A DNA stretch of 64,000 nucleotides. Origin: an uncultured Alphaproteobacteria bacterium (GTDB taxonomy: Bacteria > Pseudomonadota > Alphaproteobacteria > RF32 > CAG-239). The DNA lies in contig CASFTO010000015.1 of assembly GCA_949297665.1 (NCBI GenBank), positions 3,395 to 67,394 of the forward strand, read 5' to 3'. Shown in pieces: positions 27,115 to 55,663 of the stretch (position 1 is the stretch's first letter; the number at the start of each line of letters is the position of its first letter). A model generated the notes under the pieces. That model saw nothing but the letters and a program-made list of their open reading frames with translations, did no database searches and was not told the origin of the DNA. The translations under genes and the position numbers were made by a program.

Positions 27115-27123
27115 AGTAATCTC

Positions 27124-31614: not shown

Positions 31615-31623
31615 TGTCTACTC

Positions 31624-37237: not shown

Positions 37238-37318
37238 GCAGGAGGGAGGTATGTATTTTTTTCTGGCTATTTATTTGAATTTGTGATATACTAAGAACAA
37301 TTATAGGGGAGATTGAAA

Positions 37319-38088: not shown

Positions 38089-38379
38089 ATGAAGGATATA
38101 ATATTAAAAGCAGTAGCCAATCCTCCCAAATTATTTTGGGGGCCGGTATTGCCGACAGCGTTAAATGCTGGGTTGCAAATACCTTTTATGTTCATGGCGA
38201 TAGGAATGGCAGATGTAAACCCTCTGATTTTTATTATAAGTATAGTTACAGGGCATTTAATAGTTGTTGCATTAGGAGCAAAAGATCCGCATCTGTCAGG
38301 AATGATACAAGCCTTCGGGCAGACTAATATAGTGCCGCAAAATTTATACAAAGTGAAAGGGCACAAATTTGAACCTTAA
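38089..38379 (+). CDS. virB3: T4SS protein VirB3
   Basis: 96 aa with a VirB3-like N-terminus (ILKAVANPPKLFWGPVLPTALNAG), one or two TM helices, and a DPHLSGMIQAF motif. It lies directly upstream of virB4 and overlaps it. Confidence 0.75.
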   Translation: MKDIILKAVANPPKLFWGPVLPTALNAGLQIPFMFMAIGMADVNPLIFIISIVTGHLIVVALGAKDPHLSGMIQAFGQTNIVPQNLYKVKGHKFEP

Positions 38380-40822
38380 TTTTGACTTTTATACTTTATT
38401 TATAGCAGGTCTGCAAAGTGCGGATGCGATTGTTGCGACTTTAGGAATTATATCTGCTGCCGCAATAGCAATTTCGTTGGTATCAAAAATAGGCACATGG
38501 GTTTTACCGCAACCAAGTGAGTCAAGAGTTGCGGATTTTTTACCTTTTGATAGTTTGTTATCAGATGGTTCAACATTAAGATGCAGTAATGGTACATATG
38601 TAAGAGTATTTAAGGTTGAGGGGGTAGATTTAACATCTGCTCGTGATGAAACGGTTTTATCCATGTTTGAAGCTCGAAAGTCATGGCTTGATAACATGGC
38701 AGATTTACAAGTAACATGCCGTGTTATAACGATACGAGATCGCGTTCCAATGGAAAAGAACAAGGCTGATTTTGGAAATAAGTGGTTAAAGATAGTAGAT
38801 GACACATGGCGAGAGAATTTAAGCCGCGTATATAAGAATGATCATTACATTATTTTATCAATAGAAGACAGAAAAGAAGCGGTTAAAGATTTAAACTACG
38901 CATCACAATCCGTAATGGCGAATTTAAATGATTATGGGATAAAAGTTTTATATGAGGATGATGAAAGCACGGCAGAAATGAGCCCGGTATATCCGTTTGT
39001 AAGAATTTTAAATCCGATAAGTAAACCGATGCCGAAAGTAAGAGATGCACGGGGTTTTCAACTAAAAGAAATGCTTAGCTCAGATGGTATCCATTTTACA
39101 GGAGAGGAAGGGATAATCAAGTTCTTTTCGGGCGGGAAAGAAAAATTTGCATTAACCATGGGGATACGTAATTCCGGAGACTATATGGATGAAGGGATGA
39201 TATCATCGCTGTTGGCAATAGATTGTGAGTTGACAGTTCTACATCACATACATCCGTTATTTAAGCCCAAAGCCAGAATGATATTAATCCAGCAACAGAA
39301 AATGGCGGAAGTAACAAGTTTCTCCTCGGATGTAGTGGAGCAATACAGTGAGGCGTTGGCGGCCATAGAGGATAGTGATGCTGATCACCAATCATTAGTA
39401 GAATATTCAATGAGTTTTATATTAAAGGGTGATACGATAAAAGAGATAGAATTCGGAGAAAGTGAAGTTCAAAGAATATGTCGTTTATTTAGTGTAACAC
39501 CGGTACGAGAAAATTGGATAGCGCAAGCGACATTTTTCAATCAATTTCCGGGATACGATACATGTGGCAGAACTTATTTTTATCTATCAAGAATAGTTTC
39601 ATTGGCCGTATCTTTTGAGCAACTATCGACAGGTTTGCCGAGAAGTGACTGGGGTGAAGGCGCGATTACTGTATTTAGGACCATGAGTGGCTCACCATAC
39701 AGATTCCAATTTCATATATCTGCAGCAGAATCAGCAGTAGCACACTGTTGCATTGTAGGACCGACCGGACAAGGTAAAACAACATTATTAACATTTTTAG
39801 CCGGTCAAGCGATGCGTCACGGTGATTTAAAAGTATACTTTTTTGACAGACATCGAGGTGCAGAAATATTTACGCATATGGTAAAAGGCGCATACGTTGG
39901 ATTTAGTGGAGACAGGAAGAATGTATCATTAAATCCGTTTGATTCGCGCGATACGATGAGTAACAGAGCATTTTTAAGAAACTGGCTAAAAGCAATAACC
40001 ATGGCAAATGATGCGCTATCAGAAAGAGAAGCGGCTCGAGCTGTTACAACCGCATTTGATTATTTGCGTCCGGAAGAGCGGGTGTTGAAAAATCTATATA
40101 AAAGCTGTTTTTCACCAACAGGTACGATGCGGCGAGAATTATATAGATGGGTAAATCCGGACCAATATGGCAATATATTTAATGCGGAACATGATAGCTT
40201 AGATTTAAGTGCAAACAGATTTGTGGCATTTGATTTTACGGAAATTTTTGATGATGACGTACTGGCAGCAGCATCAATTAGTTATATCATGCATAGAATA
40301 CAATCAGAAAGCACCGAAACCGGAACGCCTGCCTTAATAATGATAGATGAAACAGCACCGATGTTGAAGCACGAAATGTTTAGAGATAATTTTATCAAAG
40401 GATTACAAGAAGGGCGTAAAAAGCGTCAAGCCTATTTATGTGCTTTTCAACAACCGAATATAGTAGATTCACTAGGGGTCGGCGATGCAGTAAGAGGGCA
40501 ATGCAAGACGATGATATTCTTCAGAAATACGCAAGCAACGCCAGAATCTTATGCAAAATGGAATTTAACGGATAGTGAATATGATTTCATAAGTGGTAAA
40601 TCATACAGAGATTGTCCGTATGCAATATTGTTAAAGCGTCCGGATGCGGGAGAAAATGGTGAAGGGGAGTCAGTGATTTTGGATGTAAACTTAAGTGGAT
40701 TAGGCCCGTATCTAAAGTTATATAATTCAGGCATCAAGAATGTGTTATTGGTAGAAAGTTTAGTAAAAGAGTTTGGCGAAGACGGATTCGTAACAAAATA
40801 TCTTAATGGATTAGGCGGATAA
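38369..40822 (+). CDS. virB4: T4SS ATPase VirB4
   Basis: 817 aa starting at TTG. Walker A is CIVGPTGQGKTTLLTFL and Walker B is ALIMIDETAPML. Length and position are typical of VirB4/TrbE. Confidence 0.9.
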   Translation: MNLNFDFYTLFIAGLQSADAIVATLGIISAAAIAISLVSKIGTWVLPQPSESRVADFLPFDSLLSDGSTLRCSNGTYVRVFKVEGVDLTSARDETVLSMFEARKSWLDNMADLQVTCRVITIRDRVPMEKNKADFGNKWLKIVDDTWRENLSRVYKNDHYIILSIEDRKEAVKDLNYASQSVMANLNDYGIKVLYEDDESTAEMSPVYPFVRILNPISKPMPKVRDARGFQLKEMLSSDGIHFTGEEGIIKFFSGGKEKFALTMGIRNSGDYMDEGMISSLLAIDCELTVLHHIHPLFKPKARMILIQQQKMAEVTSFSSDVVEQYSEALAAIEDSDADHQSLVEYSMSFILKGDTIKEIEFGESEVQRICRLFSVTPVRENWIAQATFFNQFPGYDTCGRTYFYLSRIVSLAVSFEQLSTGLPRSDWGEGAITVFRTMSGSPYRFQFHISAAESAVAHCCIVGPTGQGKTTLLTFLAGQAMRHGDLKVYFFDRHRGAEIFTHMVKGAYVGFSGDRKNVSLNPFDSRDTMSNRAFLRNWLKAITMANDALSEREAARAVTTAFDYLRPEERVLKNLYKSCFSPTGTMRRELYRWVNPDQYGNIFNAEHDSLDLSANRFVAFDFTEIFDDDVLAAASISYIMHRIQSESTETGTPALIMIDETAPMLKHEMFRDNFIKGLQEGRKKRQAYLCAFQQPNIVDSLGVGDAVRGQCKTMIFFRNTQATPESYAKWNLTDSEYDFISGKSYRDCPYAILLKRPDAGENGEGESVILDVNLSGLGPYLKLYNSGIKNVLLVESLVKEFGEDGFVTKYLNGLGG

Positions 40823-40890: not shown

Positions 40891-42042
40891 ATGGATAGAA
40901 CTAAAGTTTTGGGTATTGTTGCATTAAGTTGTGCCATAGTGATAAGTAGTCCCGCAAAGGCATTTTGGCCTGTATTTGACTTTGGAGAAGTACCGGTAAT
41001 TGTGTCTAAAGTAACGACAGCATTTGAAGCATTATCAGAAAATAAAGAACAATTAATGAAGATGAATGGTGCATTAGATGCTATGGGAAAGAGTATAGAT
41101 AATATAGCACAGTTTGGTCAAGATTTAAGAGGTCTTACAGAAGATATACAAGACGTAGTCAATAATACGGTGGATGGAATAAACGAAAATTCCGGAGCAG
41201 ATATAAAGGTTCCCGAAAGTATAAATAACGGATTAACAATAACAAATGATGCTCTGGGAGATGGACTGGAAGATATAATCGACAAGACCCAAGAGACGCT
41301 AAAACCCGGAGAAGATATATTAGAAGAAGGAGCCTCGGGAATAGATAATGCACAAAAAGGAGCAAATCAGGTCAATGAAGGGATGAAAAAGTTAGAAGAA
41401 AAGAATGAAGAAGAAAACGCCAAGAGAGAAGAAAAAAAACAAAGCCAAACGGATGAAGCAATAGAGGAGGAAGAAGAAGAGGAGGAAATTGCGGAAGAGT
41501 CGAGAGACATCATTAAAGAAGAAATAATGGTAAGCATTGATGAATTTGAAAGTGAGAGCAAACAAATAATAGCACAAATGAATGATGTTTTAGACACGGG
41601 TATTAATACGCTGAATAAGTCAGCTCAAAACACAAAAAAAATACTGGATAATTTAGGAAAGTCTATAAAAGAAACAGAACAACTGAATGAAAGCGATAAA
41701 GAAATATTACTTCAAAGAATAGAAAAATTAAAAATGCAACATCAAAACGTGTCAGATAAAACAATAGCCATTGTTGAAAATGCAAAAGAATCCTATAATC
41801 AAGAATACGAGAACAAACTCATAGATGGATTAGCAAATTACAGAAATACGATAGAGCGTTATCTCAGAGGAGACATAAGTAAGGATATTGTAGTAAAAAA
41901 AGGAGAGGAATTGAAGTTAGCGGTTAAGCAAATTGACACAACTATAGATAAAGAAACGTTAGATACACAACGTCAAGAAACAGAAGATATAAAAAAAGAA
42001 ATAAAAGCAATAGCGGCAGAAATTGCAGCAAAGAAAAGGTAG
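40891..42042 (+). CDS. Secreted acidic coiled-coil protein, array member 1 of 5 (VirB5/TrbJ-like N-terminus)
   Basis: 383 aa. The signal peptide ends SSPAKA and the mature N-terminus is FWPVFDFGEVPVIVSKVTTAFEALSENKEQL. The rest is charged helical sequence including an E8 run. No TM segments are present. The CDS is confident; the function is not. Confidence 0.55.
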   Translation: MDRTKVLGIVALSCAIVISSPAKAFWPVFDFGEVPVIVSKVTTAFEALSENKEQLMKMNGALDAMGKSIDNIAQFGQDLRGLTEDIQDVVNNTVDGINENSGADIKVPESINNGLTITNDALGDGLEDIIDKTQETLKPGEDILEEGASGIDNAQKGANQVNEGMKKLEEKNEEENAKREEKKQSQTDEAIEEEEEEEEIAEESRDIIKEEIMVSIDEFESESKQIIAQMNDVLDTGINTLNKSAQNTKKILDNLGKSIKETEQLNESDKEILLQRIEKLKMQHQNVSDKTIAIVENAKESYNQEYENKLIDGLANYRNTIERYLRGDISKDIVVKKGEELKLAVKQIDTTIDKETLDTQRQETEDIKKEIKAIAAEIAAKKR

Positions 42043-42114
42043 TTTATTAACACATTATCAATAAGTTTAAGATAATTAGTAAATAATGATATAGATTATT
42101 AGGGAGGGCGCGAT

Positions 42115-44301
42115 ATGATAAAAAGGATAATATCCGAAGTTGTAAAAGGGGCAATGATAATAAGTCTTTGTCTGACATTGAGTGTGCGCTCGGCAAAAGC
42201 CTTTGTCTGGCCAGTAATAGACTTAACAGAAATAGTTTCGTTTGTAAACAGTATTACGACCGGTTTGAACCAAGTAACAAATGCAAAGAGTCAATTAGAT
42301 AATATAACAAATGTCATAAAAACGATAGGAGATCAAGTTTCCTCTGTAAGAAAATATGCTGCAGATTTAAAAGGAACAATAAAGAACATCAAAGACAATG
42401 TTGAAAGAATAACAACAAATGTGAAAGATACGACAAATAATCTGGATGATATAGCCTCTGACGTTAATAAAACATTAGAGGATACCTTAAATAAAGAAGA
42501 AGAGAATGCAGAGAACACAACAGAAACGATAGAAGATCAGGTAGATTCAGGAGCCACCGAAGAAGAAGTACAAGAAACGTTAGATGAAGCAAAAGAGGAA
42601 TCTGATGCAAACAAAGCAGAAACAGATAAAGTGCTAGACAAAGCAGAAGAAACAATAAACGATTCAATGGAAAAAGCACAAACTGCTTTAGATATGTTAA
42701 TGGAGACAATAAATAAAAACGGCGATTTAAATGAAGCAGATAAAACAAGGTTAAATGAAGAAGCAAATGATATTAAAGATGATATAGAAGACTTAAAAGA
42801 AACCGCATCAAATGCTATAAGTAGTGTAAAAGAAGAATTCGATACACTTTATAGCGAAGAAATATCAGTTGCATTTGATACATATAGCCAAGCGATAAGC
42901 GACTACTATGCCGGCAAAATAACTAGAGAGGGGTTGACAGCAGCAGGAGAAACATTTAAAAATGATATGTCAGGGTTAGAAGCAGGCATAGATGCCAATG
43001 TAATAGATAACATAGTAAACAACGCGCAGGACATAGCAAATAAGATAGATGCATTTGAAGAAGATTTGATGAATAGCATAAGCAATTCAAAAGGATATTC
43101 AGATGGCAGTGAAGAGGCAAATTGCGAAAGAATAATAAAAAGGAGATACGCTTTTAACTATGTTTCTGATTATGAACATCAATTATTAAAAGGAATATAT
43201 GCGGAGGATGCCGATAAAAGTTTTTTGCTGTCGAAAGAATTAGCATGCGATAATTTAGATGTTTCAAAAATAGAAGAAGATCCGAGTGATTTTAGGGAAT
43301 GCGTAGTAAAAGCAAAAGCAGAAGTAGAATTATATCCGGATATATATGAAGAAGCGCTCTATAAGGATTATAAAAAAGATGGTATATACAAGCATTTGCG
43401 CGAAGATTACAGTATAGCAAATATAGTAAGTGTCAGCAAAGCAAAACAATTCTCAGCGACGTGGGGATCATTAGAGCCGGACAATGATACCAACAAAGGG
43501 ACATTATATGTTTTAAGAAAGACATTAAAGGATGTAGACAATACGCGCGCCGGATATCAATTAATGGGGATGACAGATATAGAATCACCTAAACTATGGA
43601 GTGAAATACGAAGAGTAGATGCTCTGAAACGAGCAAAAGGAGTGATTCAAGATTTCGAAACGGGAATGACTTTATATCTAGATGGAAGAGATGAAGATTT
43701 TGTAGAAGCAACAAATAAAAATTGGGGAACAATGCAATCAGACGACAGAGACAACGATGAGAGTGAAGCGGTAATAGACAAAGCTATTTTTTCAAATGTG
43801 ATAATGTATAAGTGTGGTTTAAGAGCAAAAGATATTTCGGTATCCGAAAAGAAAAAAGCAGATATGTCAGCCATTGCGGAAAAAGAAAAAAACATAGCGG
43901 ATTGTTTATATAAATATGCATTAGAAGCCAGTAGAGGTTCAGAGATAGAAAAGAAGGTCGGAAGGGAAAATCAAAGAAAAGCCTATAATGACTCTGCATT
44001 TAACAATTTAACATTAGCGACAATAAATAATTACAAATCAAGTTTAGATTACGTTGATCCAGAGAAGTTACCTGATCCGAGCAAAGACAAAAACATAGTA
44101 AGTTTACAAGACGGATTGAAAGAAAGTACAACAACCAAAGATGATTACTCGATTGGAGCACAAATTAATTATTATACCACACAGCAAATATTAAGTGTTG
44201 TTGATGCTGATGCACAAAACCAGCAAACAGAAATTTTAAAAGATTTAGAAACTTTTAACTATAACTACTTTGGTCAACAAGAGGAAGGAGAAGCACAATG
44301 A
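42115..44301 (+). CDS. Secreted acidic coiled-coil protein, array member 2 of 5
   Basis: 728 aa. The signal peptide ends RSAKA and the mature N-terminus is FVWPVIDLTEIVSFVNSITTGLNQVTNAKSQL. About 300 aa of helical acidic region is followed by a mixed domain containing several Cys. Confidence 0.55.
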   Translation: MIKRIISEVVKGAMIISLCLTLSVRSAKAFVWPVIDLTEIVSFVNSITTGLNQVTNAKSQLDNITNVIKTIGDQVSSVRKYAADLKGTIKNIKDNVERITTNVKDTTNNLDDIASDVNKTLEDTLNKEEENAENTTETIEDQVDSGATEEEVQETLDEAKEESDANKAETDKVLDKAEETINDSMEKAQTALDMLMETINKNGDLNEADKTRLNEEANDIKDDIEDLKETASNAISSVKEEFDTLYSEEISVAFDTYSQAISDYYAGKITREGLTAAGETFKNDMSGLEAGIDANVIDNIVNNAQDIANKIDAFEEDLMNSISNSKGYSDGSEEANCERIIKRRYAFNYVSDYEHQLLKGIYAEDADKSFLLSKELACDNLDVSKIEEDPSDFRECVVKAKAEVELYPDIYEEALYKDYKKDGIYKHLREDYSIANIVSVSKAKQFSATWGSLEPDNDTNKGTLYVLRKTLKDVDNTRAGYQLMGMTDIESPKLWSEIRRVDALKRAKGVIQDFETGMTLYLDGRDEDFVEATNKNWGTMQSDDRDNDESEAVIDKAIFSNVIMYKCGLRAKDISVSEKKKADMSAIAEKEKNIADCLYKYALEASRGSEIEKKVGRENQRKAYNDSAFNNLTLATINNYKSSLDYVDPEKLPDPSKDKNIVSLQDGLKESTTTKDDYSIGAQINYYTTQQILSVVDADAQNQQTEILKDLETFNYNYFGQQEEGEAQ

Positions 44302-44996
44302 AAAAGAAAATATTTTTAATTCTCTTTTTCTCATTATTTGTATATACACGCGAAGCATATGCAATATTTGATATTATGGCAAAAGTTCAATCAGTGTTAG
44401 AATACTACAAAGATATAGAAAATAAGGTTCAAGAATATCAGAAGAAACTAAGAGATGTAGAAAAAAGAGCAAGACAAGGATTTGATTTAGCAAGCAATTG
44501 TTATAAAAATCCGACCAAATGTGATGCCAAAGCGATAGAAGCCTTCGCTAAAGATTCTGAAAGTTACGTTAAAAGTTTAAAAGAGGTTAAGGTAATGCCG
44601 GGAGCAGAAGAATTAAAAGAAGGCGATTTAAAGAAAAAGAGCGACAGTAGCTTAGCGCAGACGGTAGAGAACACATATATATACCAAAGAGGACAAGGAC
44701 AAGATATCGAAAAGACGGCAGAAAATCGTCAATATTTAAATGCGATAGTCGCAGATGACACAGCCTTACTATTTGCTAAAGGTGTATCAGCCCGTCAAAG
44801 TATTTTAGTAGAAGATGGCTCGCTTTATCAGTCAGAATTTAAGAATGAGAATATGGATGAGATACTAAATGCTCAAAACATAGTTGCAATAGCCACGGAA
44901 CAAAGATTAAATAGGATATTAGAAATGCGTGCCTACATGACGAGTGCCGGCTCGACAGCCGAATTAACGCAACAAACCAGAGAAGCGGATGAATAG
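44298..44996 (+). CDS. Secreted coiled-coil protein, array member 3 of 5
   Basis: 232 aa with an ATGA overlap with member 2. The signal peptide ends REAYA and the mature N-terminus is IFDIMAKVQSVLEYYKDIENKVQEYQ. Its size is close to canonical VirB5/TrbJ. Confidence 0.55.
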   Translation: MKKKIFLILFFSLFVYTREAYAIFDIMAKVQSVLEYYKDIENKVQEYQKKLRDVEKRARQGFDLASNCYKNPTKCDAKAIEAFAKDSESYVKSLKEVKVMPGAEELKEGDLKKKSDSSLAQTVENTYIYQRGQGQDIEKTAENRQYLNAIVADDTALLFAKGVSARQSILVEDGSLYQSEFKNENMDEILNAQNIVAIATEQRLNRILEMRAYMTSAGSTAELTQQTREADE

Positions 44997-45006
44997 GAGA
45001 AGCACA

Positions 45007-46353
45007 ATGAAGAAATTTATATTAATCGTCTGCATAGCACTTGGCATATATGGAAGCAACATACGCGCAGCTCAAGCATTAATTATAGATGCGCCGGCAC
45101 TGGCGGCAAAGATTAGTGAGTGGGTTGGTAGGCTAGCTGATGCAACGACAAAGATTTCCCAACAAGTATCGCAAGTAAAGCAAATGAGCTCACAAGGATT
45201 TAACAAAGAAGAATTATTCAACTTAGCCGAAGAATACGCAACGGAATATGGTAAAAATTTACTTCAAACTAAAATGAAAAAGGTTGTAGAAGGAACTAAA
45301 AAGAAAAATAAAGACAAGTTGGAAACAGATAAAGAAGCTTATGTAACATCCAAAAATTTATATTATGACGAAAAGATAGCCATCATGGATGAAAGTATAA
45401 AAGAGACCGAAACGATGAAGGCTCAAAAACACAATGAAATGATGTTAAAGAAAGCAGAGGTAAATCAGAAAAAAGATTACTATGAAAGTGTAAAAGGTAT
45501 ATTATCAGTAGAAGCGGAAGCATACGATAAATATATCAAAGCGGAGATGGAATATCAGGAATTAGAAACAGCGTATAACGAATTGGATGAGCTAATACTT
45601 ACGCTTGAATCCCAAAAGAGCAAATTAGAAGCGGAGAAAGCCAAAGTAGGTACAATGGATGATCCCGAATATGTTTTATACGAAAAACGGTTAGAAGAGA
45701 TGGAACAAGAGGTTGAAGAAGCCGATGGAGAAGGCGGATCTGAAGATATTGTAAATAAATCAGGCGGCAATGATGCGGAATGGGATGATGAAGACATCGT
45801 GGACAGTTTTTCGCCAACGGAGAAGGACTATACGGATTTTATAAAAAGATATTTTTACAATCCTGAAGATTTATCAGCAACCGGAAGCGATGCTCGAGTT
45901 GAAAATCAAACTAAAATAGATGCAGCAACAAGGGAACGTCGTTTCTTATTAGTAAACAGTGCAGCGCATTTATTACAAGTTTCCGCATCGTTAAGACGAG
46001 AAATTCCTATTCGCAGCGAAATAATTGATGAGATGTTCCAAAATACGCCTAAAGCACCGGGAGAATTAGAAGCAATTTCATCATATTCGGCAACAAGAAT
46101 AGAAAGTATGAAAGCTCTATTAATGTACGCAAAATTACAGAGTGCAAGATTACAATACATGGCGGCAAAGCAATTACTAAAAACCAATGTTTCAAAAGTT
46201 CCGAACGGAGAATATTTGAAATTTGATTTAGAAAAATACATCCTGACAAAAGAAGATGTTGATAATGCGATAGAAGAAGCGAATAAAACCAGTAAAAATA
46301 TAGATGATACATTTAATGTAAATGTGGGAGACTACCAATGGTTAAAGTATTAA
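45007..46353 (+). CDS. Secreted coiled-coil protein, array member 4 of 5
   Basis: ATG at 45007 follows an AGGAG site (the track ORF starts at 44989). The signal peptide ends IRAAQA and the mature N-terminus is LIIDAPALAAKISEWVGRLADATTKISQQVSQVKQ. Confidence 0.55.
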   Translation: MKKFILIVCIALGIYGSNIRAAQALIIDAPALAAKISEWVGRLADATTKISQQVSQVKQMSSQGFNKEELFNLAEEYATEYGKNLLQTKMKKVVEGTKKKNKDKLETDKEAYVTSKNLYYDEKIAIMDESIKETETMKAQKHNEMMLKKAEVNQKKDYYESVKGILSVEAEAYDKYIKAEMEYQELETAYNELDELILTLESQKSKLEAEKAKVGTMDDPEYVLYEKRLEEMEQEVEEADGEGGSEDIVNKSGGNDAEWDDEDIVDSFSPTEKDYTDFIKRYFYNPEDLSATGSDARVENQTKIDAATRERRFLLVNSAAHLLQVSASLRREIPIRSEIIDEMFQNTPKAPGELEAISSYSATRIESMKALLMYAKLQSARLQYMAAKQLLKTNVSKVPNGEYLKFDLEKYILTKEDVDNAIEEANKTSKNIDDTFNVNVGDYQWLKY

Positions 46354-49300
46354 GAATGCTACAAAATCTGATCTTAGGTGTACTTATCTTAGGCTCAGGA
46401 ATTCAAGAGGCCAAAGCATTTTTCTTATTGCCACCGATGCCATGGGATATAGAAGTGGATGTACCGGCTAATGCCAATAAGATAGTGTCCAATGTAAAAA
46501 CCCTATATCGTCAGGCACAAACCATAAAGTCTGAATTAAACAGTCAGAAATTGGAAATTCTGAAAAAAGGGCAAGCCTTTTTAAATACAAAATTTAAAAA
46601 ATACGAAGAAGGCGGAAAAAACAAAGCCCCTGGGAGAGGGGAGCTCAGCAATAGTAGTCTGCTGAAAATAACGGAACACGGATTGAATGAAGAAGAAAAC
46701 TTTAACGCATTTCATACATTATTTTTGGTATATCCCCCCAAGAGTTCATATCCGGACAACTATCCTGCGGCCAAAGTGGCCTATATGCGTAAAGCCGATG
46801 AGTACAAGCAAGATGTGATTATGGAAACATACTTAACCGGTCGAGTAACGGAAAATTACCTAGCCTTAGTAGAAAAAACAATTGAGCGTTTGGATCACTG
46901 CCAAAAAGGCTTATATACCGAAGCCGAGATGGCAGAGCATTGTGTATTTTTCGGTTTACAAATGGCCTATGTTGAACCGAATAAAGAAAATCTGGATAAT
47001 GAAGGAAGTCCGGAAGAGAGTACAAATCCCGGACAATATGGAGAAGTCTTAAATGCTTATATTGTAACAACCGTTTACGATAGGCTAATGCGTATTGTAG
47101 AAGATTTAACCGGTACGGAAGCCCAATTCATATCAGCTATACAAATTGATAGTGTAGATCCGATAGAGCCTGAAGAACAGAGTTCCGCAGAGGAATATAT
47201 TGAAAACGGATATAGGTTTGCATATAGCGAGAGCAAAACATATGCTTTAGCGACAGGGCAAATGCTTGGCGGAGATTATATTCGCAGTCAAGAATGTGCA
47301 AATGGTGGGAAAAACTGTCCTGATGAGAACGAGGATATAGCCGAGATTAAAAATACGGATGACACGGCAATATTAGGTAAATTACTACCGATTGACGAGC
47401 AATTAAGAAATGCAATGAATTTGCACAATTTAAAGTCCAAATTAGACGAATATAAGACTCAATACAGAAAATACCTTAAATCAAAAGAAATACATGAAAG
47501 AATGATGAAGGTACTAAAGAAGAGTGAGGAAAGTGTAGTTAGTTTCTTAGATAGATACAGTGGCGGCAAGGGTGAAACAATTTGGTATAACGGAAATAAG
47601 CCGGCAAAAGTAAACGAGCACGAAAATCGCGGAGGTTTATCGAAAGAAGTAATTTTAGAGTATCAAGAAGACACGACAGACAAGTTAATAGGTACGGATA
47701 CTGGTGAATGTGACGGATTTTATGAATCATGTCCGGATGGATATGAATTAGATAGTGGCAATCCATGCGTATATACAGATAATAATGGAAACAGTGTAAC
47801 GAGCGCAACAATGTTTGCTTGTGTATTAAAAACCGTAACATCAGATACCGATCCGGAGGGAGATCCGAAAGTTTCTTTTGAACCAAAATTAGAAGAAAAT
47901 TACAGTATAGCAGGAGAAAATAATCAACGCGATTATAATGATACGGACTACTTTGAAGAAGGTAACGAAGCGGAAGTCGTAGAAGTAGACAATCGTGTCA
48001 AAGCCGAGAAGAATTGGCGTATCGGCTATGATAAAATTATGAAATTAACGGAAGATGGCACATTGAAGTTTGAGCCGTGGAATGACCAGAAAAACCTGCA
48101 AACAGAATATTTGCGCAACAAATATCGCAATATGAGAATGATAGTCAAAACAGCGGATCAAGGTCTATTATCGCAACGAGTAGCCAAAGTATTAGCTAAT
48201 GAGAGCAAAAATGTCGGCCCGATAGAAGAAGTATTACCAGCGGTATCTGTCTGCAAATTAACGACAGACGCAACGGAAGATGCATTTAATCAAGACTGCT
48301 CAGACTATAGTGGTTCGTGCTCACAAGGAGGAGACACCGCATCGTGCTCTGGTACTAAAGTAATACAATGTCCGGCATATGATTCGGAAGGTAATTTATA
48401 TTACTATTCAGTAACATTAACCTGTACGGTAAATGGTGATAACAACACCGGAAAGATTAACGGCTCCAAAGAAGTCGGATGCAGTAAGAGTACTGTTGGC
48501 ATAAGTTACAGCCAAACGATTAAGAGTTTATCTGGAGGATGCGATTTCACAAAAGCCGGAAGTGATTATCACGCCGTCGAGGATACAAGTGAAACATGTC
48601 CAAGCAAATGGGATTTAACCACTAAATTCCTGGTACGCAGATACATTCCTGGTGTAACGGCAAGTTGGATAAATGGTGGCAGTTATGAATCCCAATGTCA
48701 GATGGATTTAGGAACAGAAACATTGGATAAAGAAAATGCACATTTATATACAAACACCAACGCAGCCGGAAGAGTTGTTGCCTCAGATCATTTCCAAGAG
48801 CTTATAGAAATGCGTAAAGAGCTTGAGAAAAAATTAAAAGCGATGGTTGATGAATATGAGAAGAGCATGCAAAGTCTAAAAGCAACGCTACGCGCAACAA
48901 TTGCAAGCAGAAGTGAGTATGGTCAAAAACTAAGTGACAAGACGGATGAAAAGAATGAGCTTGTGCAACAGCGCCAACGTTCATTAAAACGAGCAACGGC
49001 AATTATAGCGCAAATAGAGGAATTAAATACACGCGTCGAAGAATTGCAAGCACATCTGGATGAAAGAAAGCCAACTCCCAAGAGTTTACAAAAGGAGATT
49101 GAATCACTAACGATTGGTGCCGGTGAAGATATGGATAAATTTGAAAATCCGACTTTGGCGCAAAGGATAGGACAGATTCCAGCCTTAAAAGAAGAATTAG
49201 CCTTTATCTGTTACAAAGCACCGACAAACGACGATGATTATAAGGTATGCAAAGAATATAGTGGTACAGCTAATAAAGAAGAACCGTATGACGAAAATAC

Positions 49301-51773
49301 GCGAGAAGAAGATAAATTCGAAAACGTAGCCGATTTACATACAAAAATTACTGCTAAAAACACGGAAATTGACAGTATATCCTCAATGATGCAAGTTCTT
49401 CAAGATAGGATAGATTCGTTAAATGAGCAAATAGAACAAAAGGCTCTCGAATTTGCGGATAATTATGTAAAAACATCAGAAGAAGGCCAAAGAGCCCTTG
49501 AAGCTGCCAACCGAATATTTGAGAATAAATTGGAAATTAAAGAAGATGGAGTTTCTGAACCGGATAGAATGGTCAGCAATAGCAGGGAATGGTGCAAAGG
49601 ATATGGTCCTTTGGGAGTTATATGTCGAGATGGATACAGCCATGAATATAAATATGACAATCTGAGTTGGACAATAGCCCGAGTAATGTATGGCAATGGC
49701 TCGGCGAATAGCGAAAGTGCCGTTGCCGGAGAATTACCGGAATTAGTCAAAAAAGGTATTGAAGACAGATGGTTTGCAGATGGTTCATGGCTAAGCTACG
49801 CGGCAAATAAACTAAGTAACGAAGGAAAAGTAGTCAGAAAATTTGTTGTAGAAGGAGGCTGCTTGGCACCATATGGTGTAGCAGATGGGCTATATACACC
49901 AACAACGCTGGCAAAAGCCCTAAAAGAGAAATCCGTAGAGGAAGCGGTGGCTGATTTATCCATCGGAAGTGAAGCCTACATCAACAAAGCAGACAAGATC
50001 ATTAAAGATGAAATTGACGCTGCGGTAGAAGAGATTACGGATGTGATGGAACTATGGGGCGTAACCGGAGAAGAAGGCACAGAAGCAAATCCTGCCATTT
50101 TTGAGCATAGCAATTATGCTGATGATGGAGCGACAGAAGGAACGCAATCTGTAACGAAAACACACTATGAGTTGTTGGAAGATTTAAATAAAGCCGAAAA
50201 TCAAAGTATACTGGATGCCGCAAGCATTGAGTTAAAAGAGGTATTTGGTATGCCGGATTCTGTTGCGACGGATGATGACTACTTTGCAGCTTTACCGGCA
50301 AGAGGTTATTTTGCAGGCAAAGATACCTATGTACAATTTGGTCGCGACAATGAAAAATTTGTCTTTGACGAGAATGATGGTCGAGATTATCGTGCGCCGA
50401 GAAAACCATTAATGAACCTTGCGCCGATAAGAGAAGTATTTTACTTTAGTGCTCTTGATTATGATGACGTACCGCAAAAAGACGGAAAACCATCACTATC
50501 GGCATTGATTGATGTAAAATACAAAAATGTAGACATTGCAAGTGCAAAAGAAGTAGAATATCTACCGGAAGCATGGAGATATTTACTGGCGACACCAAAT
50601 CTAAGAAAAGGACCGGAAAAATATCAACATACATTTGTTGAGCGCGGCTATGGTTTGGATAAATTGAAGAAATATCTAAACAATGAAAATATAGACGGAG
50701 CCGAAGAATGGCATTACCGCGCTATTATCGGAAGAGGCGGAGTATATCCGTGTAACTTAGGCGGTCGCGTCATAGATGTCGGTGGAGGCGATGGTGTTGG
50801 AGATATCCAATTTAAGCAAAGAAGCAGCTTACCAGCCGATATATTGAAAGCGGAAGAGTGCCAGGAAGTTGAATCCTATAAAGGAGGAGTTCGTCAATTG
50901 TTGGCCGATCATGATGCCAAAGATGACAGCAAGTCAAAAGCGCTTCAAGGAAGTCTAGGAGGAACAACAGAGCCGATGTACTTGAAGTATAGTGAATTAG
51001 GTCAATTCCTGAATGGAGATTTGCAATATCGTCCAATATTAAAGAACATCTACGATTATTTACTAAGTGAAGATAATCAAGAAAACAACATAGAGCGTCA
51101 ACGCGCGGATACAGCAGTGTTCAAACGTAATGTTATAGGCTCATTCTTAGAGTCGGTAAATGCAGAACATACGGCACAGAAAGCGCTGGAAAAGAATGAA
51201 CAAGAAGCAAAAGATTCTCTGAAAAACTTGTGTATGCAACTTCATAATTTTGGCACGAGTGTCAATGGCGAGAGTTGCGAAGACAAAGAAGATAGCGAAT
51301 GCATGGAAGAGATTGCGGAAACCTGCGCTGAATTCATAATGGAAAACGGAGGTCTTGCAAAAGATTCGTTCGACGACAAGTACGATGTAGATTGTAGCCA
51401 GTCCGGTTCAAACTCTTACTATGAAACGATATTCTGCAAACTGAATGATTTAAAAGATGAAGCAGTGAAGAAAGCAGAAGAAGGATACAGTGAAGGAGAA
51501 AATGAGTATGAAGGTTACAACGAAGTAAAAGGCATGGAAGGAAACGAAAAGATAGAAGAACGTAAAAAGTTGATAGAGAACTATCTTGAAATCTTTAAAG
51601 AAACGGATGCCGATGAATTGTCGTATGTACAACCGGATGCGACGCCGGAAGAAGTTGCGGAAGCCGTAGAAGAGGCTAAAGCAAACAGAGAAGCATCTCT
51701 GGACGCAACAGAAGAAGGTCTGACATCAATGGATAACCAAAGCCAAGCCGTACCATACGCACCTGTATATTAA
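46338..51773 (+). CDS. Giant secreted protein (1811 aa), array member 5 of 5
   Basis: The signal peptide ends IQEAKA and the mature N-terminus is FFLLPPMPWDIEVDVPANANKIVSNVKTLYRQAQTIKSEL. Cys-rich segments (about 47.7-48.7 kb), coiled coils (about 48.8-49.5 kb) and an acidic C-terminus follow. No TM segments were seen. The start overlaps the member 4 stop by 16 nt. Confidence 0.6.
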   Translation: MVKVLRMLQNLILGVLILGSGIQEAKAFFLLPPMPWDIEVDVPANANKIVSNVKTLYRQAQTIKSELNSQKLEILKKGQAFLNTKFKKYEEGGKNKAPGRGELSNSSLLKITEHGLNEEENFNAFHTLFLVYPPKSSYPDNYPAAKVAYMRKADEYKQDVIMETYLTGRVTENYLALVEKTIERLDHCQKGLYTEAEMAEHCVFFGLQMAYVEPNKENLDNEGSPEESTNPGQYGEVLNAYIVTTVYDRLMRIVEDLTGTEAQFISAIQIDSVDPIEPEEQSSAEEYIENGYRFAYSESKTYALATGQMLGGDYIRSQECANGGKNCPDENEDIAEIKNTDDTAILGKLLPIDEQLRNAMNLHNLKSKLDEYKTQYRKYLKSKEIHERMMKVLKKSEESVVSFLDRYSGGKGETIWYNGNKPAKVNEHENRGGLSKEVILEYQEDTTDKLIGTDTGECDGFYESCPDGYELDSGNPCVYTDNNGNSVTSATMFACVLKTVTSDTDPEGDPKVSFEPKLEENYSIAGENNQRDYNDTDYFEEGNEAEVVEVDNRVKAEKNWRIGYDKIMKLTEDGTLKFEPWNDQKNLQTEYLRNKYRNMRMIVKTADQGLLSQRVAKVLANESKNVGPIEEVLPAVSVCKLTTDATEDAFNQDCSDYSGSCSQGGDTASCSGTKVIQCPAYDSEGNLYYYSVTLTCTVNGDNNTGKINGSKEVGCSKSTVGISYSQTIKSLSGGCDFTKAGSDYHAVEDTSETCPSKWDLTTKFLVRRYIPGVTASWINGGSYESQCQMDLGTETLDKENAHLYTNTNAAGRVVASDHFQELIEMRKELEKKLKAMVDEYEKSMQSLKATLRATIASRSEYGQKLSDKTDEKNELVQQRQRSLKRATAIIAQIEELNTRVEELQAHLDERKPTPKSLQKEIESLTIGAGEDMDKFENPTLAQRIGQIPALKEELAFICYKAPTNDDDYKVCKEYSGTANKEEPYDENTREEDKFENVADLHTKITAKNTEIDSISSMMQVLQDRIDSLNEQIEQKALEFADNYVKTSEEGQRALEAANRIFENKLEIKEDGVSEPDRMVSNSREWCKGYGPLGVICRDGYSHEYKYDNLSWTIARVMYGNGSANSESAVAGELPELVKKGIEDRWFADGSWLSYAANKLSNEGKVVRKFVVEGGCLAPYGVADGLYTPTTLAKALKEKSVEEAVADLSIGSEAYINKADKIIKDEIDAAVEEITDVMELWGVTGEEGTEANPAIFEHSNYADDGATEGTQSVTKTHYELLEDLNKAENQSILDAASIELKEVFGMPDSVATDDDYFAALPARGYFAGKDTYVQFGRDNEKFVFDENDGRDYRAPRKPLMNLAPIREVFYFSALDYDDVPQKDGKPSLSALIDVKYKNVDIASAKEVEYLPEAWRYLLATPNLRKGPEKYQHTFVERGYGLDKLKKYLNNENIDGAEEWHYRAIIGRGGVYPCNLGGRVIDVGGGDGVGDIQFKQRSSLPADILKAEECQEVESYKGGVRQLLADHDAKDDSKSKALQGSLGGTTEPMYLKYSELGQFLNGDLQYRPILKNIYDYLLSEDNQENNIERQRADTAVFKRNVIGSFLESVNAEHTAQKALEKNEQEAKDSLKNLCMQLHNFGTSVNGESCEDKEDSECMEEIAETCAEFIMENGGLAKDSFDDKYDVDCSQSGSNSYYETIFCKLNDLKDEAVKKAEEGYSEGENEYEGYNEVKGMEGNEKIEERKKLIENYLEIFKETDADELSYVQPDATPEEVAEAVEEAKANREASLDATEEGLTSMDNQSQAVPYAPVY

Positions 51774-51791: not shown

Positions 51792-52550
51792 ATGGTCAAT
51801 TTAATAAATCAAAAAATACTGCGTCTAACCGACAGAGTTCGAGCCAAAGAAGCACCTGCTTTTATAACAGAAGATGTTGTAGAAGTAAAACGAGCAAAAT
51901 TGATTTATTACAAATGGATAAGTAGGTTAATGGCTATGTTGGCTACTATATCTTTGCTATATGGTGTATGCACGACGTTGTCGATTTTGAAGTTAGCCCC
52001 TGAAATAATAATAGATCCGCAACTATTTGTAGAATTATCAGATTCACAATCAATGGTAAAACGAGAAAGAGTTGATCGCTGGATGGAGTCTCGTGAAAAG
52101 ATAATGATAAATTTTATGAAACAATATGTAGAGCTTCGAAATACATACATAAAAGATGAGAAAGAAATGAATAATCGCTGGCTATGGGGAGGTCTAGTTT
52201 CATATTTATCGACATATCCTGTTTATAAGGAGTTCGAAAAAGTATTCCCCAAATTTAAAGAGGAGATGGTAGAAAAGGAGGGCAGTCGCTCGGTAGAAAT
52301 TCTTTCGGTAGAGAGAACGGGAGGGGAAAACAGTAATACATGGAAGATAGAATTTAAGACCTATGATTTTACTTTCAAGCAAAATCGGCTAAACCGTCGA
52401 GCCAGTATTACGCCAACAATAGAAGAAAGATATTGGACAGCAAATATTCGCGGCTATGTTGATCCAAACAGGAGAACCGCATATCGTCGTCTATTAAATC
52501 CATTAGGCTTTGTTGTATACAGTTATTTTCAAAGTGAAATAGAGATTTAA
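51792..52550 (+). CDS. virB8: T4SS protein VirB8, paralogue a
   Basis: 252 aa, bitopic (TM LMAMLATISLLYGVCTTLSIL). The periplasmic NTF2-like region ends RRLLNPLGFVVYSYFQSE, containing the VirB8 NPLGF motif. Confidence 0.8.
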   Translation: MVNLINQKILRLTDRVRAKEAPAFITEDVVEVKRAKLIYYKWISRLMAMLATISLLYGVCTTLSILKLAPEIIIDPQLFVELSDSQSMVKRERVDRWMESREKIMINFMKQYVELRNTYIKDEKEMNNRWLWGGLVSYLSTYPVYKEFEKVFPKFKEEMVEKEGSRSVEILSVERTGGENSNTWKIEFKTYDFTFKQNRLNRRASITPTIEERYWTANIRGYVDPNRRTAYRRLLNPLGFVVYSYFQSEIEI

Positions 52551-52692: not shown

Positions 52693-52881
52693 ATGTATAA
52701 AGCATTAGTTATCGGGTTTGCTGTATTAATATTAGCTGCTTGTAATTTAATAGGAAGTTATTATGAACCGGAACCAGTAGGCATAGGTAAAGATGTTTAC
52801 GAATTAAAATTATCACCATGTGCATGCATAGAAGTTGAATTGCCCAAGACTTTACCGGATTGGTTTAAGGCAATAAGCTAA
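52693..52881 (+). CDS. virB7: Small lipoprotein in the VirB7 position
   Basis: 62 aa with signal peptide and lipobox VLILAAC. It lies between two virB8 paralogues, exactly as rvhB7 does in Rickettsiales. No sequence motif beyond the lipobox was recognised. Confidence 0.55.
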   Translation: MYKALVIGFAVLILAACNLIGSYYEPEPVGIGKDVYELKLSPCACIEVELPKTLPDWFKAIS

Positions 52882-52901: not shown

Positions 52902-53660
52902 ATGGTAGAGCAGATATCCTCAGAGAACACTAAGAAACTTTTATTGGAAGGGCGAGGAATTGAAAAGCCTCAGCCAAGGGTAGCACGACCTCAAAAAAGA
53001 GGAAATGCAGATATTATAGTAGAAAATGCAACTGAAAAAAGGTATCTGTGGACTGCTCGTGCTTTTGCTATAATTTTTGCAGTCAGTTTATGCTGCAATT
53101 TAATTTTAACGTATGTAATCATAGCAATCATGCCATTATATCGCATTGAACCATATTTATTCAGCTTTGCAGAAAAAAAAGATCAAATATATACGATACA
53201 TCCAGTTAAAAACATTTATGAATATAAATATTTGACAGAAATTTTTGTACGTGAGTATGTTTTACTTCGAAATACATTTGTAAACAACGTGGAAGAAATG
53301 GAACAGCGATGGGGGGCTGGTGGAACGTTGCAAGAAATGTCTTCACCAGGGGTATATAGTCAATTTCGCGAGAATTTTGCAGATAAAGCAATTGATTTGA
53401 TACGAAATCATAACATAACCAGAAATATAAAAATATCATCGGTAACGGAAGTTGGTGGTAAGAATGGTGAAATGTGGTGGCAGGTAGAATTCAGAGTAGA
53501 AGATATGATGCCGGAATACGAAACCCCGAGATTAAGTGTGTGGTTAGCCTCAATAAAAATACAATATAGAGCCAAAAGAGTAACATTTGGGGAGAGACTG
53601 AAAAATCCTTTAGGATTTACGGTGCTTGACTATAAACAAGTCGAAAGAAAAACGAATTAA
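52902..53660 (+). CDS. virB8: T4SS protein VirB8, paralogue b
   Basis: 252 aa, bitopic (TM AFAIIFAVSLCCNLILTYVIIAIM), ending ERLKNPLGFTVLDYKQVE. Confidence 0.8.
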   Translation: MVEQISSENTKKLLLEGRGIEKPQPRVARPQKRGNADIIVENATEKRYLWTARAFAIIFAVSLCCNLILTYVIIAIMPLYRIEPYLFSFAEKKDQIYTIHPVKNIYEYKYLTEIFVREYVLLRNTFVNNVEEMEQRWGAGGTLQEMSSPGVYSQFRENFADKAIDLIRNHNITRNIKISSVTEVGGKNGEMWWQVEFRVEDMMPEYETPRLSVWLASIKIQYRAKRVTFGERLKNPLGFTVLDYKQVERKTN

Positions 53661-53680: not shown

Positions 53681-55663
53681 ATGAAAGTAGTAAATATTTT
53701 ATCCATAGTAATGATATCAATGGGGATGATAATTCCTACAGTATCCGCGCAGGTAACAAAAGATAATCTAGATCAAAATGCAGATCAAAGCCAAGGGAAT
53801 TACGCTGCAACTAATTTAAACTATTTGGGCGGAGGCGGTTCATTAGGCATGATGCAAAGTGCATGGAAAGATCCTTTGCAACACATGGGAGAAGGACAAA
53901 CACGTCCCGGATACACAAAATACTACTGGACACCGGAATTAGTTCTACCGGTAAGAGTAAGAGAAGGTATGTACACTTTAATAAACTTTCCGAATTGGGA
54001 AGTTATAGAGAATGTATATATTGGAGATGGACAATCGTTTAATGCGGAAATACAAGGTCCGTCAAGTTTAATGGTGTATCCTGATTCTTCGCAATTTGTC
54101 GGTGTAGATACCAATATGATTGTTTTTGGTCGATCTGGAAACAAATATGTTTTTTATGTACAAAGTGAAACAGTTAATACCGATAGAATAACCAATGCGA
54201 TAATAGATATAGAAGTAGTCAAAAGGCGTCAAAACGCAACAGGCTCTGCCGTGATAGGGAGCAACAATGGAGGTGGACATATAAATGCAAATACATATGG
54301 GCACAATGGCAGCAGTGCGGATGCGACTTTTACAAGGGATTTACAAAAAGAAGACTGGATTGAAAAAATTCCGGTAGATCCAACAAAGTTCCGTTTTGAT
54401 ATAGAAGTATATGTCCCCAATCCCGATGATATTGTAATAGCACCGGAGCGTGTATGGCGTGACAATATTTTCACTTATATAGACTTGGGAGACAAAGCAT
54501 TAACTGCAAATCAAAGACCGATAGTAACATTAATTGTGGAACGCTCAGAAACCCCTATTGGTTTTAGAACAGCGGGACCGAATAATCGTCTGATAATAGT
54601 AGAAGGCATGGGAGATATGGTTCTTCGCAGTGGAAAGAGAATAGTATGCCTAAAATTAAGAAGAGCGGATTCGGATGGTTTGGAAAATACAGTATATGCG
54701 AAGACAAATGAATGGGATTTGCAGGCTAAGAATTATCAAAAAACAACCGAAGGAAAAGAAAATAATACAGGATCATATGAGAATGTGTATGAGGGTGATG
54801 TCCAAAAAGAAAATAATCAAAAGAAATCATTCTTTGGTATCAGTTCGTTCTTTGGAGGTTCACAAAATACGGATAGTTCATCAACAGATACCAATGGCTT
54901 AAGTTATGAAGATATGATAAGCGATAAAAAGAATACGTCCGGTCAACAATCCGAGAAAGCAACAAATATGGAAGAAATAACCCCGCAAGATAAGATTAAG
55001 CCGCAAACAAATCTAGAAAGCAAAACTGAAGAAACAACTCTGTTGAATTCAATACCTAAGGCTAAAACATATGTAGCAGCTCCAACTCCTCAAGAAAGGG
55101 GAATAGAATTAACAGGACAGTATGATACAAAAGCGGATGGAGCCGAATTAGTGACACCACAATATGAAAATAAGCCTGATGTATCAGTAACCTACCAGAA
55201 AGAAGTTGAGCAAAATACAACAATTCCGGAAAGTATTAAGCAAAATACATCAACTCAATTTGGAACCTCAAGCAATAATTCAAGACCTATCTTGATTACT
55301 CCTAAAGATGAAAATCTAGCAAAACAGAATTCATTGGTAAGCGCGGAAACAGAGGCTTTGCTCAAAGAATTTAGAGATGGAAGGGCTTTTTCAAATAGAG
55401 ATGAAAGCAACATTTCCATAGAATTAGGAACAGATAAAGATGTAAATAATTTAGAAAAATTATGGAATGATATTTCTAAAAATTACTCAGCAACATTAGG
55501 TAAATATCAGCCGTTTTATTCAGTAGATACACCGGCAGATGGACAAGGAAAAGAAGTATTTCATCTTCGTGTAGGTCCTGTAAAATCATTAGATGAAGGG
55601 GACAATATATGCAGCCAATTAGGTCGTAACGGAATATTTTGCAGCGTGGTCAGAATACAATGA
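53681..55663 (+). CDS. virB9: T4SS outer-membrane core protein VirB9 fused to a C-terminal SPOR-like domain
   Basis: 660 aa with a signal peptide. The VirB9 N-domain reads YTKYYWTPELVLPVRVREGMYTLINFPNWEVIENVYIGDGQSFNAEIQGPSSLMVYP...TNMIVFGRSGNKYVFYVQS. The VirB9 C-domain reads FRFDIEVYVP...IAPERVWRDNIFTYIDLG...RLIIVEGMGDMVLRSGKRIVCLKL. A low-complexity linker of about 240 aa follows. The last ~80 aa read ISIELGTDKDVNNLEKLWNDISKNY...FHLRVGPVKSLDEGDNICSQLGRNGIFCSVVRI, which is SPOR-like. Confidence 0.8.
   Translation: MKVVNILSIVMISMGMIIPTVSAQVTKDNLDQNADQSQGNYAATNLNYLGGGGSLGMMQSAWKDPLQHMGEGQTRPGYTKYYWTPELVLPVRVREGMYTLINFPNWEVIENVYIGDGQSFNAEIQGPSSLMVYPDSSQFVGVDTNMIVFGRSGNKYVFYVQSETVNTDRITNAIIDIEVVKRRQNATGSAVIGSNNGGGHINANTYGHNGSSADATFTRDLQKEDWIEKIPVDPTKFRFDIEVYVPNPDDIVIAPERVWRDNIFTYIDLGDKALTANQRPIVTLIVERSETPIGFRTAGPNNRLIIVEGMGDMVLRSGKRIVCLKLRRADSDGLENTVYAKTNEWDLQAKNYQKTTEGKENNTGSYENVYEGDVQKENNQKKSFFGISSFFGGSQNTDSSSTDTNGLSYEDMISDKKNTSGQQSEKATNMEEITPQDKIKPQTNLESKTEETTLLNSIPKAKTYVAAPTPQERGIELTGQYDTKADGAELVTPQYENKPDVSVTYQKEVEQNTTIPESIKQNTSTQFGTSSNNSRPILITPKDENLAKQNSLVSAETEALLKEFRDGRAFSNRDESNISIELGTDKDVNNLEKLWNDISKNYSATLGKYQPFYSVDTPADGQGKEVFHLRVGPVKSLDEGDNICSQLGRNGIFCSVVRIQ

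Follow-up and report, generated by a model that had tools for sequence, protein, structure and literature searches.

A conserved, unannotated cassette of secreted proteins with candidate VirB5-type N-terminal segments in a chromosomal type IV secretion system of uncultured gut Alphaproteobacteria

Among the core parts of type IV secretion systems (T4SSs), VirB5 shows the least conservation, and several well-studied systems were long thought to be devoid of it. In the R388 system, pentameric VirB5 rests on pentameric VirB6 with its N-terminal part facing outward, and the pilin is thought to be inserted beneath (PMC9259494). The F-encoded TraH (458 aa, with a signal peptide) is a reported VirB5 homologue hidden from sequence and fold searches and recognisable only by its interface and a local N-terminal helix-loop-helix (bioRxiv 10.64898/2026.07.31.741991). 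Bartonella Trw amplifies both VirB2 and VirB5 (PMC12857230), and the rvh system of Rickettsiales has no recognisable VirB5 (PMC2653234). Here we examine a 64,000-nucleotide stretch of contig CASFTO010000015.1 from an uncultured alphaproteobacterium (hereafter the window), in which five genes, designated g383, g728, g232, g454 and g1811, follow virB3-virB4 of a T4SS operon. An original prediction, drawn from the sequence alone, had taken this cassette for one expanded family of VirB5-like proteins in the slot where Rickettsiales carry five virB6 paralogues.

The cassette is genuine and conserved but has no annotation, none of its five proteins being recognised by a family database. We read it as the Sec-exported module, periplasmic or extracellular, of a chromosomal T4SS that is P-type (VirB-like), distinct and found in uncultured gut Alphaproteobacteria. 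The open reading frames bear out the description of five co-oriented and tightly packed genes: g383 starts 68 nt after the end of virB4, and the following spacings are +72, -4 (an ATGA overlap), -8 and -16 nt. The fourth protein, previously given as 449 aa, has 454 aa from the start at 44989 and 448 aa from a second ATG at 45007; with this second start, the 10-nt gap first reported before g454 holds. A cleavable signal peptide had been announced for each protein, and in all five N-ends, as read from the sequence, a basic N-region is indeed followed by a hydrophobic core and an A-x-A motif. With a slash marking cleavage, the sites are AKA/F in g383, g728 and g1811, AYA/I in g232 and AQA/L in g454. 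The cleavage regions read AKA/FWPVFDFGEV (g383), AYA/IFDIMAKVQS (g232), AQA/LIIDAPALAAKISEW (g454) and AKA/FFLLPPMPWDIEVD (g1811); in g728, residues A29, F30, W32 and P33 are invariant.

Past residue 35, the maximal 19-residue Kyte-Doolittle mean of the five proteins is 0.23-1.04, as against 1.8-2.5 for the membrane segments of VirB8, VirB3 and VirB2 of the same operon. All five cassette proteins are secreted and without transmembrane helices. They are helical and, once mature, acidic (pI 4.4-5.0; 4.5 for g383) and hydrophilic, and the conserved C-terminus of g1811 ends in QAVPYAPVY. As a separate feature, residues 192-200 of g383 (41464-41490 in the window) contain a run of eight or nine Glu that is invariant in 17 aligned orthologues; the stretch around it is the least conserved part of the protein.

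Like the rvh system, this is a chromosomal alphaproteobacterial T4SS with a duplicated virB8 and extra genes after virB3-virB4, and its virB8-virB7-virB8-virB9 order, including a small lipoprotein gene between the virB8 genes, presumably resembles the rickettsial arrangement. The cassette genes could accordingly be imagined as VirB6 paralogues that have degenerated or been truncated and that share ancestry with the hydrophilic extensions of rickettsial RvhB6, and both their position after virB3-virB4 and their number match the Rickettsia locus (PMC2653234). However, the post-virB4 genes of rvh encode polytopic VirB6 paralogues, whereas those found here encode soluble secreted proteins in an operon without VirB6. 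Where VirB6/TrbL would have five or more transmembrane helices, no hydrophobic segment follows the signal peptides, as the hydropathy maxima already indicate, and no TrbL/VirB6 model of Pfam or NCBIfam matches any of the five proteins at E <= 1. None of them is VirB6-like, in agreement with the earlier observation that VirB6-type multiple transmembrane helices are absent.

The number of genes is no better guide to a rickettsial parallel. We compared the window operon with related loci and contigs, numbered L001, L025-L028, L083 and L089 where they need to be told apart. Among the distant operons, L025 has four cassette genes (388, 223, 415 and 1297 aa) and L028 has five (364, 397, 500, 412 and 1411 aa) that arose via a different duplication; L026 and L027 hold cassette fragments of the same kind. 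Since distant operons carry four genes or a different duplicate, the five-to-five match with rickettsial virB6 is coincidental and the parallel with the five rvhB6 genes is ruled out. As the count of five is lineage-specific and the proteins do not form one family, descent from VirB6 is close to refuted and we grant it only a very slight chance.

The idea of a single expanded family did not survive all-against-all alignment either, which left g383 and g728 as the only demonstrable paralogues and ruled out a five-member paralogous family. Homology links the g383 protein to g728 over the first ~330 residues of the latter (BLASTP E 5e-17; hhalign E 7.5e-45, and E 1e-37 without signal peptides). 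No further cassette pair is related beyond the N-terminus by hhalign, the other pairs sharing at most about 40 N-terminal residues. The cassette comprises four protein families: A (g383 and g728), B (g232), C (g454) and D (g1811). Because the distant operons differ in cassette content, the conserved unit is this set of families A-D with lineage-specific duplication. An orthologue of g1811 is present in every related operon (1164-1868 aa).

Searches beyond these loci returned more members of the same families. A database search with g728 retrieved 32 unnamed homologues of ~730 aa, and a profile search with g454 retrieved 41 homologues of about the same size, all unnamed. The g232 profile, run with HMMER against 1.84 billion representative proteins, gave 95 matches, of which the distant ones lay in the same operon type in every case whose genomic context was checked. 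None of these g232-profile relatives carries a Pfam family or provides a bridge to annotated VirB5.

Several features place the cassette close to the TrbJ/VirB5 proteins, such as the RP4-type TrbJ, Agrobacterium tumefaciens VirB5, R388 TrwJ and pKM101 TraC. The genes of these proteins also come right after that of a VirB4-type ATPase, and in plasmid records trbJ follows trbE and virB5 follows virB4, so that the cassette occupies the virB5/trbJ position of Trb and Vir operons. TrbJ/VirB5 proteins likewise have a Sec signal peptide and no transmembrane helix, and their mature part starts with a hydrophobic-x-Asp pattern followed by a long helix; in size, g232 is comparable. In the conserved pattern of TrbJ/VirB5, a Pro comes after the Asp and the helix is rich in Q/N. 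The same mature start had been proposed for the cassette proteins, and it is kept in their orthologues, with AlphaFold helices at residues 26-70 of g232 and 37-144 of g728.

The likeness was assessed with annotated proteins taken from plasmid records, seven of them TrbJ and five VirB5, by comparing profiles with hhalign after signal-peptide removal over the first 90 mature residues, with 100 column shuffles. Family A scored 23.8 against TrbJ (shuffles: mean 9.5, standard deviation 1.9, maximum 15.4), g232 scored 17.7 (shuffle maximum 17.2) and g454 scored 17.6 (shuffle maximum 14.9). Between cassette families, A scored 24.1 against g454 (shuffle maximum 17.9) and g232 scored 25.7 against g454, a comparison made without a shuffle set. 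The positive control, TrbJ against VirB5, reached 29.4 (shuffle maximum 17.0); the negative control, the mature N-terminus of VirB9, gave 8-12 against each profile, also without a shuffle set. All alignments between cassette families, TrbJ and VirB5 begin no later than the fourth mature residue of either partner, and the mature N-terminus of g383 aligns in register with TrbJ at E 9e-4 (score 32). When g383, g728, g232 and g454 were divided into 7, 15, 4 and 9 windows, the N-terminal window had the top score against TrbJ in each. The scores over the first 90 mature residues exceed those of shuffles and internal windows, yet remain below the TrbJ-VirB5 control.

The first ~40 mature residues of g383, g728, g232 and g454 thus appear to align in register with TrbJ and with one another, a similarity that is weak but consistent at the sequence level. 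The VirB5-like N-termini initially ascribed to all five proteins may therefore apply to these four; g1811 gave nothing significant against TrbJ. Within each protein, the first 12 mature residues rank as the second most conserved window in g383 and g232 and as the fifth in g728 and g454. Full-length alignments that included signal peptides had given hhalign probabilities of 88-95%, which were discounted as inflated after trimming.

We tentatively favour, at somewhat less than an even chance, a reading in which the cassette encodes proteins of the stalk or pilus tip that are exported via Sec, have a VirB5-type N-terminal docking segment in common and diverge in their distal domains. In families A, B and C, the ~40-residue conserved segment that directly follows the cleavage site, with its hydrophobic-x-Asp start and subsequent amphipathic helix of TrbJ/VirB5 type, may serve as a docking or oligomerisation element. 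This would be the simplest interpretation because the segment is common to the three families and is among the most conserved windows of each. It would mount the A, B and C proteins on the T4SS stalk, and polymerising VirB2 pilin would carry them outward, as proposed for the R388 VirB5 pentamer. Their unrelated and faster-evolving distal parts could then act as alternative or co-assembled tip or adhesin domains, with g1811 as a putative large accessory partner at the surface or in the periplasm. Stalk docking, tip location and adhesion are all deduced by analogy and are proposed here as a model.

A number of results weigh against this reading. The similarity covers only ~40 residues of helix-prone sequence, hhalign probabilities for the mature sequences are only 4-34%, and a reversed-sequence control between two helical cassette families still gave E 1.7e-4, indicating a high background. 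Column shuffling is a lenient null, and the direct comparison with Agrobacterium-type VirB5 was not significant. No VirB5/TrbJ model (Pfam T4SS PF07996; NCBIfam TrbJ and VirB5) matched the five proteins at E <= 1, nor, at E <= 10, any of 30 orthologues of g232 type or 17 of g454 type, each scanned on its own. Searched against PDB sequences, the five family profiles returned coiled-coil noise only, apart from the match of g383 to TrwJ described below. With Foldseek, the g232 model found nothing significant in the PDB (best E 1.7) and the g728 model nothing at E <= 0.001 (best E 0.066, to designed bundles), and neither list contained VirB5, TraC, CagL or TrwJ. Finally, VirB6, the partner that VirB5 needs, is not found in the operon from virB2 to virB11.

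The g383 family profile aligns with R388 TrwJ/VirB5 (7o3v_A) from residue 2, at a non-significant E of 0.28, and TrwJ is the sole T4SS protein among its 49 weak PDB matches; a genuine TrbJ profile, searched in the same way, retrieved no VirB5 structure. The AlphaFold model of g232 has long helices at 26-70, 136-171 and 186-224 with an insert at 71-135, a layout (one long helix, an insert, two long helices) that is as expected of VirB5, in a low-confidence model of modest quality (predicted local distance difference test, pLDDT, 68; predicted template-modelling score 0.45). The fold of reference for VirB5 is a three-helix bundle bearing a globular appendage, as in TraC (1R8I), CagL and TrwJ. 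The g728 model (pLDDT 72.6) shows confident helices over 100-325 and a confident all-alpha domain over 360-725. Ten g454-type N-terminal fragments had no VirB5/TrbJ model match, and one g454 orthologue had a sub-threshold match to PF13605 DUF4141 (19 bits for a cut-off of 30) over residues 6-44, which span the signal peptide and N-terminus. No CagL or TraH model matched the five proteins or the scanned orthologues, and g1811 and 13 of its orthologues had no Pfam, NCBIfam or PDB match. The profile similarity to VirB5, TrbJ or CagL that might have been expected from the original prediction was thus not found in the family-model scans, the TrwJ alignment being non-significant. Because no family profile matches, we assign the cassette to a VirB5/pilus-tip theme and not to the VirB5 family.

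The described systems also differ from the cassette in ways that limit each comparison. Unlike TrbJ/VirB5, the cassette has no family-model, PDB or fold match, its in-register N-terminal likeness is comparable to but weaker than that between TrbJ and VirB5, three of its four candidates are 383-728 aa long, and it includes three unrelated families in place of one gene, without an adjacent virB6/trbL. F TraH offers a precedent for oversized and highly divergent VirB5-type proteins such as g454, although the Pfam TraH family is absent among cassette matches and no direct comparison with a TraH profile was made. In Helicobacter Cag, adjacent genes for CagH, CagI and CagL likewise encode secreted, dissimilar T4SS proteins. 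These three proteins have only a short terminal motif in common and are needed for pilus formation, and it is chiefly on structural grounds that CagL counts as a VirB5 analogue. In contrast to the cassette, the Cag motif is C-terminal and the Cag locus has a VirB6 (CagW), and we found no sequence or fold similarity between the two. Bartonella Trw and the window operon both contain several VirB2 paralogues and several tip-protein candidates, which are fastest-evolving, and no VirD4 is seen in either operon. The Trw copies, however, are recent tandem duplicates of one family beside trwI/VirB6 copies, whereas in the window operon paralogy is limited to g383 and g728, and the families are old, with a fixed order. 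The suggested resemblance to Trw is therefore partial: three VirB2 paralogues are present, but there is no array of mutually similar VirB5 copies.

Related loci come from metagenome-assembled genomes of uncultured Alphaproteobacteria, probably the group named RF32 in GTDB, from the human, mouse and ruminant gut, and 161 VirB9 relatives were counted in human-gut and rumen metagenomes; a literature search found no paper on the secretion systems of these bacteria. Synteny is conserved, the order from virB2 through the five cassette genes to virB9 being shared by all 22 related genome loci. Across these loci, VirB4 is 83-99% identical and the five cassette genes 24-97%. The ratio of non-synonymous to synonymous substitution rates (dN/dS) stands at 0.01 in VirB3 and VirB4, and the five cassette genes show values of 0.03-0.19, with the maximum of the operon in g383 (0.13-0.19), next to 0.01-0.16 for the VirB2 paralogues. 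Against the closest relative, where VirB4 is 99% identical, pilin paralogues b and c are at 84% and 82-84%. The cassette genes are thus real and evolve under purifying selection, although they are constrained far less tightly than the T4SS core. No other genes of the operon evolve as fast as g383 and the VirB2 paralogues, and this shared rapid evolution fits surface exposure.

The operon around the cassette was delineated in the window (Table 1), and its 3' part beyond the window was reconstructed from related metagenome contigs. The second of the two beta-flower proteins is identified as VirB10 because its counterparts in related contigs, which have shorter repeats, end in a TrbI domain; in L089 and L083 the full-length counterparts carry this C-terminal domain at E 3e-32 and 2e-33. 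A 322-aa VirB11-type ATPase follows VirB10 in both, and conserved gene order stops after virB11 in those contigs that extend further. The reconstructed operon runs from three virB2 genes through virB11 and is otherwise complete, without virB6 or virD4. No polytopic open reading frame and no VirD4 were found between virB2 and virB11 in the window and related contigs, and no TrbL/VirB6 match anywhere in the 64-kb window. The missing VirB6 and VirD4 genes may lie elsewhere in these genomes. The first 24 kb of the window hold housekeeping genes (tsaD, uvrC, addAB, rph, atpB and others), and since these and a type IVb pilus cluster flank the operon, we consider the T4SS chromosomal.

Table 1. Cassette genes, surrounding T4SS operon and adjoining pilus genes in the window
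Feature	Position	Strand	Description
g383	40891-42042	+	383 aa; family A, short paralogue
g728	42115-44301	+	728 aa; family A, long paralogue; has in addition a conserved C-terminal domain (~360-725), all-alpha
g232	44298-44996	+	232 aa; family B, VirB5-sized, secreted, two invariant Cys
g454	44989-46353	+	454 aa; family C; N-terminal half helical, C-terminal 190 aa strongly conserved
g1811	46338-51773	+	1811 aa; family D, secreted, 200 kDa, 31 Cys
VirB2/TrbC-like pilin paralogue a	36067-36444	+	125 aa; signal peptide and two hydrophobic helices; L001, L025 and L028 orthologues carry PF04956 TrbC
VirB2/TrbC-like pilin paralogue b	37313-37639	+	108 aa; topology as paralogue a
VirB2/TrbC-like pilin paralogue c	37650-38012	+	120 aa; topology as paralogue a
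VirB3-like	38089-38379	+	96 aa; by position, size and two hydrophobic segments
VirB4 ATPase	38369-40822	+	817 aa; TIGR00929 E 5e-113, PF03135 E 4e-10
VirB8 paralogue a	51792-52550	+	PF04335 E 3e-12
Lipoprotein, VirB7-like by position	52693-52881	+	62 aa; lipobox LAAC
VirB8 paralogue b	52902-53660	+	PF04335 E 8.5e-18
VirB9 with C-terminal SPOR-like domain	53681-55663	+	PF03524 CagX E 9e-14
Beta-flower repeat protein	55639-61941	+	2100 aa; one N-terminal transmembrane helix; PF21785 E 4e-137; no TrbI domain
VirB10 N-terminal part, beta-flower repeats	61913-64000	+	PF21785 E 5e-37; runs off the window
Type IVb pilus cluster, adjoining the T4SS	25325-35862	-	bundlin-like, T2SSF, T2SSE, PilO, secretin and TcpQ genes; 517-aa and 490-aa open reading frames without family
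Separate T2SSE-family ATPase, beside the pilus cluster	24356-25303	+	315 aa

Both giant proteins encoded after VirB9 are packed with beta-flower repeats and have one N-terminal transmembrane helix each. VirB10 carries more than 1000 aa of inserted repeats, the region corresponding to both proteins in L089 being 11551-19705, and the 2100-aa protein resembles a VirB10 N-terminus minus the TrbI domain. The N-terminus of the latter, a cytoplasmic tail and the transmembrane helix, is conserved across related operons, and the length of the beta-flower repeats differs greatly by lineage (~980-3190 aa). In VirB9, residues 586-658 match the SPOR-like, peptidoglycan-binding PF05036 (E 6e-4) at 20.5 bits, just under the 21-bit cut-off, and the C-terminus is strongly conserved in distant relatives. 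The 62-aa lipoprotein between the virB8 genes is 75-98% identical in all related loci; no P[ILV]NK motif such as that of RvhB7 is visible in it.

At the 5' end, L001 has four VirB2 pilin paralogues against three in the window, and the 868-nt gap after the first pilin gene of the window contains no plus-strand open reading frame of at least 80 aa. Between the pilin genes and virB3 of L025 lies a gene (L025:4763-5899) for a 378-aa protein with a VirB2-like N-terminus (signal peptide and two hydrophobic helices) and a long C-terminal extension, which could represent the fusion of a pilin with an additional domain. The type IVb pilus neighbourhood recurs in L001 and L028. Over the T4SS operon (36000-64000), the coding strand has a GC skew of 0.15-0.45 and an AT skew of 0.2-0.3, far above the housekeeping part of the window and peaking in the repeat genes.

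With the whole operon in view, the cassette products might be seen as lineage-specific periplasmic scaffold proteins, comparable to accessory parts of the expanded Cag and Dot/Icm machines, that build or decorate the stalk or cylinder instead of the pilus tip and might compensate for a missing VirB6 platform. Their order is strictly fixed inside a structural operon in every relative, all five genes are under purifying selection, no VirB6 lies between virB2 and virB11, and the machine is visibly expanded, with its SPOR-like VirB9 and with VirB10 and an extra membrane protein bearing hundreds of beta-flower repeats. Yet the non-synonymous rates of the cassette proteins, 5-20 times those of VirB3, VirB4 and VirB8, fit exposed parts better than a core, and soluble anchor-free proteins cannot replace the membrane-embedded base given by VirB6. 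VirB6 may, moreover, be encoded elsewhere, T4SS genes being scattered in Rickettsia (PMC2653234). We regard such a scaffold as unlikely, while giving it appreciable weight.

The secretion signals and the lack of virD4 raise another alternative, in which the five proteins are not machine parts but Sec-dependent cargo or surface adhesins exported in two steps via the T4SS outer-membrane complex, in the manner of pertussis toxin. The five subunits of that toxin have signal peptides and are encoded beside ptl. All cassette proteins have Sec signal peptides, and g1811, at 200 kDa and rich in Cys, matches an adhesin or toxin in size; no gene for the coupling protein VirD4 is seen in the operon as far as virB11, as is the case in Ptl and Trw (PMC12857230). 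No toxin, enzyme or adhesin domain was found in the cassette proteins or their orthologues, however, and the set is fixed in order and content, whereas cargo genes usually vary between lineages. The common TrbJ-like N-terminus also points to a structural interaction. A role as cargo therefore seems improbable to us.

A bolder reading can also be considered. The system could be a T4SS that works without VirB6, its central stalk and pilus base being formed from several unrelated soluble proteins, each recruited by the same VirB5-type N-terminal segment, together with the 200-kDa Cys-rich partner. This is a long shot, but if true, a VirB6-less modular tip and stalk would be an architecture not seen in any characterised T4SS. 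Alternatively, as the original prediction also allowed, the cassette may represent proteins of the periplasm or surface that form a new T4SS-associated class.

This T4SS, which occurs widely in metagenomes of the human gut and the rumen, carries after virB4 three unannotated families whose only common feature is a VirB5/TrbJ-like N-terminal segment. The absence of virB6 and virD4 from an otherwise complete virB2-virB11 operon raises questions on how the machine is assembled and on its role in gut bacteria that have never been cultured. If the segment is a docking element, it would allow hidden equivalents of VirB5 to be sought simply by sequence, and would illustrate how different distal domains can be displayed by a single machine.

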